From: Escherichia coli
GTDB taxonomy: Bacteria > Pseudomonadota > Gammaproteobacteria > Enterobacterales > Enterobacteriaceae
Reading direction: 5' to 3' (one strand)
DNA: 64,000 nucleotides
Assembly: GCF_013122565.1 (NCBI RefSeq)
Contig: NZ_CP053258.1
Part shown: in pieces, positions 54,307 to 60,530 of the stretch
Position numbering within the stretch: the stretch's first letter is position 1
Layout: each line of letters begins with the position of its first letter
The notes under the pieces: generated by a model
Seen by the model: only the letters and a program-made list of their open reading frames with translations
The model's database searches: none
Told to the model about the DNA's origin: nothing
Translations under genes and position numbers: made by a program

Positions 54307-55349
54307 AAAAATGGTCACGCCACCTGCTCGCGGCGGGTGCTCTGGCACTGGGCATGAGCGCCGCTCACGCTGATGACAACAACACGCTGTATTTCTACAA
54401 CTGGACCGAGTACGTGCCGCCAGGACTGCTCGAGCAGTTCACCAAAGAAACTGGTATTAAGGTTATCTATTCGACTTACGAGTCGAACGAAACCATGTAT
54501 GCCAAGCTGAAAACGTACAAAGACGGTGCCTATGACCTGGTGGTTCCTTCAACCTATTACGTCGATAAAATGCGTAAAGAAGGGATGATCCAGAAGATCG
54601 ACAAGTCGAAGTTAACGAACTTCAGCAATCTCGATCCAGACATGCTCAATAAGCCGTTTGACCCGAATAACGATTACTCCATTCCGTATATCTGGGGTGC
54701 GACGGCGATTGGCGTTAACGGTGATGCGGTGGATCCGAAATCTGTCACCAGCTGGGCCGATTTGTGGAAGCCTGAGTACAAAGGCAGCCTGCTGCTGACC
54801 GACGATGCCCGTGAAGTGTTCCAGATGGCACTACGTAAGCTGGGCTACTCCGGTAACACCACCGATCCGAAAGAGATTGAAGCTGCATATAACGAGCTGA
54901 AAAAACTGATGCCAAACGTCGCAGCGTTTAACTCCGATAACCCGGCTAACCCGTACATGGAAGGTGAAGTTAACCTCGGCATGATCTGGAACGGTTCTGC
55001 TTTCGTTGCACGCCAGGCGGGTACGCCTATTGACGTGGTGTGGCCGAAAGAAGGCGGCATTTTCTGGATGGACAGCCTGGCGATCCCGGCAAATGCCAAA
55101 AACAAAGAAGGTGCACTGAAATTGATCAACTTCCTGCTGCGCCCGGATGTGGCAAAACAGGTTGCTGAAACTATCGGTTATCCAACGCCAAACCTTGCGG
55201 CGCGTAAGCTGTTAAGTCCGGAAGTGGCGAACGATAAAACGCTCTACCCGGATGCTGATACCATTAAAAATGGCGAATGGCAGAATGACGTTGGCGCAGC
55301 CAGCAGCATTTATGAAGAGTATTATCAGAAGCTGAAAGCAGGACGTTAA
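54303..55349 (+). CDS. potD: spermidine/putrescine periplasmic binding protein PotD
   Basis: 348-aa ORF with signal peptide; matches K-12 PotD. Confidence 0.97.
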   Translation: MKKWSRHLLAAGALALGMSAAHADDNNTLYFYNWTEYVPPGLLEQFTKETGIKVIYSTYESNETMYAKLKTYKDGAYDLVVPSTYYVDKMRKEGMIQKIDKSKLTNFSNLDPDMLNKPFDPNNDYSIPYIWGATAIGVNGDAVDPKSVTSWADLWKPEYKGSLLLTDDAREVFQMALRKLGYSGNTTDPKEIEAAYNELKKLMPNVAAFNSDNPANPYMEGEVNLGMIWNGSAFVARQAGTPIDVVWPKEGGIFWMDSLAIPANAKNKEGALKLINFLLRPDVAKQVAETIGYPTPNLAARKLLSPEVANDKTLYPDADTIKNGEWQNDVGAASSIYEEYYQKLKAGR

Positions 55350-55357
55350 TTCAGCAA

Positions 55358-55390
55358 GCGGGCGGTGGTATTACCGCCCGTTTTTTATTT
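55358..55390 (+). terminator. rho-independent terminator of potABCD
   Basis: GCGGGCGGT-GGTATT-ACCGCCCG hairpin followed by TTTTTTATTT. Confidence 0.8.
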
Positions 55391-55462
55391 AGCAAGAATG
55401 AGGCTAATGAGCCAGGACAGTAGAGTTTTATCCCGCTCTTTCGTCGTTATTGTGGTCCGCTC

Positions 55463-55491
55463 GTAGGCCTGATAAGCGTAGCGCATCAGGC
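55463..55491. repeat. REP element
   Basis: Reverse complement reads GCCTGATGCGCTACGCTTATCAGGCCTAC, the canonical E. coli REP unit. Confidence 0.85.
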
Positions 55492-55504
55492 AATGTTTCC
55501 CGCT

Positions 55505-56326
55505 TTATAAGCCCTTCAGCAACTTTTCAACAAATTCTGGCACCACCTGGCTTGCCGGGCCGTAATATTTCTCGGCAAATTCATTACCAACCTGACTCGG
55601 TTCAAGATTGAGTTCCACGGTGTGTGCGCCATGCAGTTTCGCTTCGTGAACAAACCCAGCCGCCGGATAAACATGCCCCGAAGTACCAATGGCAATAAAA
55701 ATATCGGCCATCGACAACGCCATATAAATTTCATCCATACCGAGTGGCATTTCGCCAAACCAGACTACGTGCGGGCGCAAGGGTGCCGGGAACTGGCAGC
55801 AATGGCATTTATCTTCTGGGGTAACGTCTCCGGTCCAGTCGAGAACCTGACCACTTTGTGAACAACGAACTTTCAGCAGTTCTCCATGCATATGAATCAC
55901 ATTGGTATTACCTGCGCGTTCATGCAGGTTGTCTATATTCTGCGTTACCAGCAAAAAGCGATCGCCGAGGGCGTCTTGCAGTTTAGCCAGCGCAAGATGC
56001 GCGGCGTTAGGCTGAATTTCTGGCTGCTGCAGCTGTCGGCGACGGGCGTTATAAAACGCTTGCACCAGTTCAGGATCGCGATCGAAACCTTCCGGCGTTG
56101 CCACATCTTCAACCCGATGTTCTTCCCACAGGCCATCTGCGGCGCGAAAGGTACGAATACCTGATTCCGCAGAAATACCTGCCCCTGTCAGTACGAGTAC
56201 TCTTGGTTTTTCCATTGCTTCCGGCACCACTTTATCTCTGAAAAAAATACGCTGACGCAAACGCTCGCGCAGGCGGCGTTTATTTTTACGAAAACGACTT
56301 AACCGATGACCCCGACGCGACAGCAT
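55505..56326 (-). CDS. cobB: NAD-dependent protein deacylase CobB (sirtuin), long isoform ORF
   Basis: 273-aa ORF with arginine-rich N-terminal extension and internal start [19 protein letters not shown] for the short isoform. Confidence 0.93.
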
Positions 56327-56341
56327 AGCAACCTCTGTTGT

Positions 56342-57253
56342 TTAATCGGTTAGATGTAGGAAGGCCGCACCACGCATTCCTCCCGCATCACCGTGGCGCG
56401 CGCGTTCAATGCGCGGAACACGAGCTACAGGTAAGAGATGACGAGGCAGCCTGTCCGCCAGTTGCGTTGTGATTGCCGGGAAATTCGATAAGCCACCACC
56501 AATGACGACCAGGTCAGGGTCAACAATGGTCAGGATATTTCCCAGACAAACCGCTAATAAATCCAGATAACGCTCAACGTGCGCCCTTGCCTGCTCATCG
56601 CCTTGATCATAAAGCGCAATAATTTCGGGAGCCTGCAACGGTTGATGATAATAGTGTTGATACAGCCACGCAAAACCGCGACCAGACAGATAATTTTCAA
56701 TGCAGCCATGCTGACCACAGCCGCAGCGGCGTAACGGGAAATCCAACCCCATCATGGTTAACGCATCAACCGGCAGACGCATATGGCCAAACTCGCCGGT
56801 AATGTAGCTTTTACCGGTAATCGGTTTGCCGTTGAAAATCAGCCCGCCGCCAACGCCGGTACCGAGAATCAACCCCATCACCAACGGATATTGAGTAAAT
56901 TCATCATCCCAGGCTTCTGAAAGGGCAAAACAGTTGGCATCGTTATCAAGACGAACATCGCGATCAAGACGTGCGCTCAGGTCGGCACGCAGCGGTTTGC
57001 CGCTGGCAGCGGGGACATTAGCGGCATACAGCGTGCCATCTTCTGTTTCCGGCATTCCAGGAATACCGATACCGACAGAACCTTTACAGCCAAAACGTTG
57101 GTCAGCTTCGGCTACCAGTTCACACACTGCATCTAAAAATGCGTCATAGCTGTCACGCGGTGTCGGCACCCGCTTTTCCCACTGCAACTGCCGACCGCTA
57201 TCAAACACGCCAAGCGCAATTTTTGTTCCACCAATATCAAACCCGTAATACAT
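56342..57253 (-). CDS. nagK: N-acetyl-D-glucosamine kinase
   Basis: 303 codons from ATG at 57253 ([20 protein letters not shown]-family motif); matches K-12 NagK. Confidence 0.95.
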
Positions 57254-57281
57254 TGCCGCTCCTTGTTTTAATGTACTGCCT

Positions 57282-60530
<3,249 letters not shown>

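Follow-up and report, generated by a model that had tools for sequence, protein, structure and literature searches.

Several bacterial genes contain two in-frame starts, among them infB (the IF2 forms), clpB and cheA. In such genes one ORF yields a full-length and an N-terminally shortened protein, with the catalytic part common to both. The sirtuin gene cobB has the same layout, although the proteins are unrelated and cobB also has reported separate promoters besides its second start. In Salmonella, isoforms of 273 and 236 aa and two transcription starts were described in 2010 (Tucker & Escalante-Semerena, as reported in PMC8603916). In E. coli, Umehara et al. (2018) expressed C-terminally His-tagged cobB with varied upstream lengths and observed two bands (PMC6209979). 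With 30 nt upstream, or with the ORF alone, only CobB-S was made, and an ORF trimmed to Met38 gave no protein (PMC6209979). The same paper placed a K-12 CobB-L promoter within nagK (-417..-30, with predicted hexamers at -347..-319) and a CobB-S promoter within +1..+111 of cobB, that is, within codons 1-37. Both isoforms, of 31.5 and 26.7 kDa, were subsequently seen in MG1655 with an anti-CobB antibody in a 2026 NAR paper (PMC12926920).

NAD+-dependent deacylase activity has been demonstrated for K-12 CobB (PMC6209979, PMC12926920), and the N-terminal extension that distinguishes the long isoform already has assigned functions. Only CobB-L binds polyphosphate (KD 48.8 nM) and DNA (PMC12926920), the 37-residue domain of Salmonella CobB drives oligomerisation and Zn2+ binding (PMC10965786), and control by N-terminal acetylation, which lowers the activity of the long isoform, has been described (Parks & Escalante-Semerena 2020, as summarised in PMC8603916). 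The K-12 MG1655 RefSeq annotation of b1120 contains both products, NP_415638.3 (1179520-1180359) and the CobB-S entry YP_010051180.1 (1179631-1180359), with starts 111 nt apart. Publications and annotation already cover the two-isoform arrangement, which shows essentially no variation among E. coli. Since the isoforms were described in 2010 and 2018 and both stand in the reference annotation, the locus presented below has little weight as a discovery. Its use lies in annotation: cobB is correctly annotated from the long start, with a second product from Met38.

Organisation of the cobB locus

We analysed a 64,000-nt stretch of E. coli DNA (the window), in which cobB and nagK have the following features:

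55505..56326, minus strand: cobB long-isoform CDS (CobB-L, 273 aa plus TAA stop), from the ORF list and NF001755
56326-56324, minus strand: long ATG, from the minus-strand reading
56216..56326, minus strand: codons 1-37, the Arg/Lys-rich N-terminal extension, from identity to K-12 and dN/dS
56213..56215, minus strand: internal ATG (Met38, codon 38), start of CobB-S (236 aa here), matching the K-12 YP_010051180.1 position
55505..56215, minus strand: CobB-S CDS, the catalytic Sir2 core, from Pfam SIR2 (residues 48-221) and structures
56332..56335, minus strand: GAGG Shine-Dalgarno of the long start, inside the nagK-cobB spacer, from sequence, conservation and duplex energy
56342..57253, minus strand: nagK (N-acetylglucosamine kinase), from NF009835 (590.7 bits) and the K-12 alignment
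55466..55492, no strand assigned: REP-type palindrome just 3' of the cobB stop, GCCTGATGCGCTACGCTTATCAGGC, from sequence

The ORF list and translation give a 273-aa protein from 55505..56326, stop included, and cobB is annotated at 822 nt in the nearest E. coli genome. The protein begins MLSRRGH…PEA, and Met38 (MEKPRV…) opens the Sir2 core. Curated profiles place it in the Sir2/CobB deacylase family with scores above their cut-offs: Pfam SIR2 (PF02146) covers residues 48-221 (183.6 bits, cut-off 24), and the NCBIfam equivalog NF001755 aligns residues 1-272 (597.9 bits, cut-off 318). Since the latter alignment starts at residue 1, the curated model itself takes in the extension. Across 64 homologues there is no variation in the NAD-binding motif GAGISAESG (G48-G56), the HG catalytic histidine (H147-G148) or the Cys cluster of the Zn module (C155, C174, C176 and C177). 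Residues 39-273 match PDB entries 6RXJ and 1S5P (E about 1e-161), the printed 6RXJ alignment being identical from residue 40. Judged from its sequence, the window's cobB is almost certainly an ordinary E. coli gene for an NAD+-dependent protein-lysine deacylase with two in-frame starts. Plus-strand ORFs that overlap it (e.g. 55622-55861 and 55886-56164) are mechanical only, with no supporting evidence, and were set aside.

In such a gene, initiation at the first start (ATG 56326), after the GAGG Shine-Dalgarno sequence and 15 nt past the nagK stop, would give CobB-L of 273 aa, in which the first 37 residues are a highly basic segment joined to the Sir2 core. Initiation at the second (ATG 56215, Met38) would give CobB-S of 236 aa, the catalytic core alone. 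The first-pass annotation had likewise read the gene as a long/short dual-isoform arrangement and had proposed a comparison with the published start sites. In that comparison the internal ATG fell at the K-12 CobB-S position, 111 nt downstream of the long ATG, and the arrangement is borne out by the K-12 RefSeq products, by the protein studies in E. coli (PMC6209979, PMC12926920) and by purifying selection on the extension.

The comparison with K-12 CobB (b1120) was close. From the nagK stop through the 15-nt spacer and the extension to the internal start, the nucleotide sequences do not differ (100% identity for the extension), and the gene order lolE-nagK-cobB is common to both. Indeed, over the interval -417..+111 that was dissected in K-12, the window has a single mismatch, at -199, and because of this it would be expected to behave identically, making both isoforms. 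Synonymous changes are scattered in the cobB core, and K-12 CobB has 279 aa and ends …KGLKAGSIA, whereas the window's protein has 273 aa and ends …KGL, as in Salmonella. When the stop region (55505-55510 in the window) was compared, K-12 was found to have a 1-nt deletion in the TAA stop (TTATAAAGCG to TTA-AAAGCG), with the frame running 6 codons into the downstream REP. Both lengths are common in E. coli (a cluster of 3707 members at 273 aa, one of 904 at 279 aa). We rejected the idea of a recoded or synthetic genome, raised by a best whole-region identity to E. coli of only 98.1%, the K-12 differences being ordinary third-position changes with no systematic codon replacement.

Within the species, a 155-nt segment comprising the nagK stop, spacer, extension and internal start was missing from just one of 5426 complete E. 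coli genomes; of the 5425 that have it, 5130 do so at an identity of at least 99%. For the 1151-nt cobB region (55350-56500), the best match among the 5426 was only 98.1%, in a genome with annotated nagK and cobB, yet many of the same genomes match the 155-nt junction at 100%. The window therefore carries an uncommon allele of the cobB core. At the protein level, its CobB matches a common E. coli CobB cluster (P0001) at 100% over the aligned part. The window may stem from a lineage, or from Shigella, that the 5426 genomes do not cover.

On the other side of cobB, the window has a convergent potD directly downstream (55350-55505), where K-12 has ycfZ-ymfA. Strain Z1322HEC0005 has the same cobB-potD arrangement as the window, which points to a presence/absence polymorphism with its edge at the REP beside the cobB stop. 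This palindrome resembles the RNA family naRNA4 only weakly, scoring 21 bits where the gathering score is 59.5.

Selection on the extension and on both starts

The open frame upstream of Met38 is in itself poor evidence of translation. The chance that 37 codons ahead of a true start stay open is (61/64)^37, or about 0.17; such a frame is not rare by chance, and so the raw ORF observation alone proves little. It is comparative and published evidence, not the open frame itself, that makes the reading of the extension solid.

For the comparative part, a scan of one genome per species gave 80 loci that, with the window, make 81 nagK-cobB loci, mostly from different Enterobacteriaceae species (Escherichia, Citrobacter, Salmonella, Enterobacter, Klebsiella, Kosakonia, Cronobacter relatives, Cedecea, Buttiauxella and others). 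The upstream ATG was invariant (81/81) and sat in frame, 44-46 codons before an 11-residue motif. In all 81 the extension was recognisably homologous, with 36-38 residues, and every indel comprised whole codons. Pooled Nei-Gojobori estimates for extension codons 2-37 gave a pN/pS of 0.25 and a dN/dS of 0.15, against a dN/dS of 0.04 for the core. These values indicate that the extension codes for protein and is held by purifying selection, though less tightly than the catalytic domain.

The second start was also conserved. Codon 38 was ATG in 76/81 loci and GTG in 3/81; the remaining 2/81 (Yokenella and a Klebsiella MAG) had no start codon there, so the short isoform is not universal. Among 12-codon windows of the 81 sequences, synonymous diversity was lowest in codons 31-42 and 1-12, the two initiation regions. 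Rare AGA codons were fixed at R30 (69/81) and R42 (73/81). Over the extension as a whole, pS was 0.554 (about 0.55) family-wide, compared with at least 0.608 in all 200 possible 36-codon core windows, and 0.063 (about 0.06) within Escherichia, compared with at least 0.174 in any 36-codon core window. A nucleotide sliding window placed the most conserved nagK-cobB stretch in Escherichia at -21..+130. The comparison, based on sequence only, is independent support for the two starts and spans about 80 species.

Two of the loci were anomalous in other respects. In Escherichia sp. MOD1-EC7003 (L007), the nagK frame stops 123 nt before cobB and nagK-like sequence continues downstream, a frameshift that marks either a pseudogene or an assembly error. 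Contig CACSKA010000011.1 (L047), titled 'Chryseobacterium sp. 18061', bears an Enterobacteriaceae-type nagK-cobB locus, and over the stretch compared its CobB N-terminus matches that of 'Citrobacter sp. 18056' (L043), a record of the same study, residue for residue; mislabelling or contamination of the assembly is probable.

Promoters, initiation and the junction with nagK

The published K-12 promoter elements map to the window as follows:

56356..56743, minus strand: K-12 CobB-L promoter interval (-417..-30), in the 3' part of nagK (PMC6209979)
56645..56673, minus strand: predicted CobB-L promoter hexamers (PMC6209979)
56244..56276, minus strand: BPROM-predicted -35/-10 of the K-12 CobB-S promoter (+51..+83), sequence identical here (PMC6209979, K-12 identity)

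Published work is not unanimous on whether the two internal E. coli promoters exist and how strong they are: in an earlier reporter study, as cited in PMC6209979, the only promoter activity lay upstream of nagK, and the interval -400..+151 of cobB had none. This account would fit CobB-S being made chiefly by internal initiation on a long nagK-cobB mRNA and not from a separate cobB promoter, a question of mechanism only. Our simple sigma-70 consensus scan of 55300-57500, which returned no site in the published promoter intervals, goes in the same direction, although such a result neither supports nor refutes those promoters. Against it stand the promoterless-vector experiments, in which CobB-S was expressed from +1..+111 alone (PMC6209979), and the synonymous diversity of the extension DNA, which lies below that of every 36-codon core window and fits an embedded DNA or RNA signal. 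On balance we consider initiation on the long mRNA unlikely to be the chief source of CobB-S, while granting it more weight than any of the alternatives taken up below.

If the separate promoter is accepted, the 111 nt of the extension would have a dual role, encoding the basic segment and also carrying the promoter and initiation region of the short isoform. This would explain the low synonymous diversity, and we give it about an even chance of being correct; the Arg-rich codon composition may also account for part of the low pS. A dual role would mean that the comparative figures confirm a published idea quantitatively, with no new mechanism involved.

At the other end of nagK, codons 8-13 (57215-57231, minus strand) contain an exact match to an intragenic sigma-54 binding site, GTGGAACAAAAATTGCG. 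In K-12, this site was found by ChIP-seq as IS12 (PMC4591121), and a sigma-54 (RpoN) promoter site for nagK-cobB has been listed at about the same K-12 coordinate, 1,177,842 (PMC8743547). The start of nagK itself needed correction. The mechanical ORF, with TTG 57313 as its first codon, overlaps the end of lolE; NF009835 aligns from residue 21 of that ORF, and profile and K-12 together place the real start at ATG 57253, giving 303 aa.

The junction between the two genes does not have the form proposed in the first-pass annotation, in which the long start overlapped the region of the nagK stop. After this stop (TAA, 56344-56342) come a 15-nt spacer, ACAACAGAGGTTGCT (56327-56341), and only then the cobB ATG. 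Within the spacer, GAGG lies 5 nt before the long ATG and forms a duplex of -6.5 kcal/mol with the 16S rRNA 3' end; only 3% of background in-frame positions in cobB have a Shine-Dalgarno sequence as strong. Spacers in the other loci examined ranged from 2 to 19 nt, with overlap in none, and in loci with spacers of 12-19 nt a GAGG, GGGG or GGAG was conserved at the same distance.

The overlap had been taken to imply transcriptional or translational coupling with nagK, and the two parts of this claim fared differently. Transcriptional coupling stands, since a nagK-cobB transcription unit has been listed (PMC8743547) and the CobB-L promoter has been placed inside nagK (PMC6209979). Translational coupling is possible but not needed, because the long start has a strong Shine-Dalgarno sequence of its own. 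A stronger form of the idea is that CobB-L synthesis depends mainly on such coupling, either by termination-reinitiation or by ribosomes opening the start region. In its favour, every one of the 81 nagK-cobB loci has nagK directly upstream (the single exception having a disrupted nagK frame), and in nine species the spacer is just 2-3 nt (TAAnnATG), a typical coupling geometry. The window itself, with a 15-nt spacer and an independent strong Shine-Dalgarno sequence, argues the other way, as does the distant relative L083 described below, which keeps the extension without nagK upstream. Moreover, when 110 nt around each start were folded, the RNA was no different from shuffles (z = 0.05 at the long start and 0.52 at the internal one), so the long start gives no sign of structure, or of a hairpin sequestering the Shine-Dalgarno sequence, that ribosomes would have to open. 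An Rfam scan of 55200-57500 returned only two sub-threshold matches, due to chance or REP-derived, and no known RNA element at the junction. Main dependence of CobB-L on translational coupling therefore seems improbable in the window. From the spacer lengths, coupling looks a likelier possibility in the nine species with 2-3-nt spacers.

A further alternative concerns the origin of the short form: only CobB-L would be synthesised, and the smaller protein would be its proteolytic product, with no second start. The internal start does have a weak Shine-Dalgarno sequence (-3.6 kcal/mol, with 26% of background positions as strong), and the linker (residues 29-42) is predicted to be disordered and so could be accessible to proteases. 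Yet constructs lacking the CobB-L promoter give CobB-S and no CobB-L, and the Met38-trimmed ORF gives nothing (PMC6209979). The start codons at codon 38, ATG in 76 loci and GTG in three, also count against proteolysis, as do the minimum of synonymous diversity around this codon and the conserved A-rich codons, with the rare AGA, just downstream. We regard proteolysis as very unlikely to be the source of CobB-S, and retain initiation at Met38. A literature search for ribosome profiling (retapamulin) mentioning cobB found nothing relevant.

Finally, the extension might be an untranslated in-frame 5' leader favoured by longest-ORF gene callers, with only Met38 used; the roughly 17% chance of such an open frame, the crystal structures that all begin at residue 39 or 40, and the gene distances in PMC4591121, which by our arithmetic from its table fit a cobB start 111 nt past the long ATG (the short start being, it seems, the one used in an older K-12 annotation), would all suit this, but the invariant ATG and conserved Shine-Dalgarno sequence in 81/81, the exclusively in-frame indels, the dN/dS of 0.15 and the detection of CobB-L by anti-CobB in MG1655 (PMC12926920) and from plasmid constructs (PMC6209979) leave it next to no probability, and for K-12 it is already refuted by the westerns.

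The basic extension in Salmonella and more distant proteins

Of the 37 residues of the extension, 12 are Arg and 3 are Lys. In the homologue alignment M1, R4, R8, L9, F12, K16, R17, R22-R26, F28 and F29 are invariant. AlphaFold2, run with 64 homologues, modelled one long helix over residues 2-28 at low confidence (pLDDT about 50-59), followed by a disordered linker (residues 29-42) ahead of a confident core; all solved E. coli CobB structures begin after the extension, at residue 39 or 40. The model is compatible with a flexible, polyanion-binding basic arm that is probably helical.

The closest counterpart outside E. coli is that of Salmonella enterica, whose CobB_L (273 aa) and CobB_S (236 aa) have the same lengths as the window's isoforms (PMC8603916, PMC10965786). 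The Salmonella loci in our set (L028, L031) share the 37-residue basic and hydrophobic extension, the upstream nagK and about 90% protein identity. They differ in having two adjacent Met codons at the internal start (…PEMMENPRV) and a spacer of 16-17 nt.

To place the extension more widely, an exhaustive search of 1.84 billion cluster representatives was made and its best 150 hits were examined. Alignments from query residues 1-4 were confined, among these 150, to fragments of the Enterobacteriaceae cluster and two further proteins; all the remaining sirtuins began at about query residue 38-44. On the evidence of these best 150 clusters, the extension appears to be confined to close relatives of the Enterobacteriaceae protein. 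One of the two others, P0121, is 60% identical to the query and is encoded in a Logan contig of ERR5321934 (L083). Like the window's CobB, it joins a Sir2 core to an Arg-rich segment at the N-terminus (MRSCHRHRTRINRYRKNKRKMRQRF…), homologous to the extension, but it lacks a Met at the position of Met38. This more distant Enterobacterales CobB is of the 'long only' type, with the extension and without the internal Met, as reported for Erwinia amylovora. Its gene follows directly after lolE, without nagK, in the order lolCDE-cobB-roxA-like-phoQ. Since P0121 keeps the extension without nagK, the extension does not depend on nagK adjacency.
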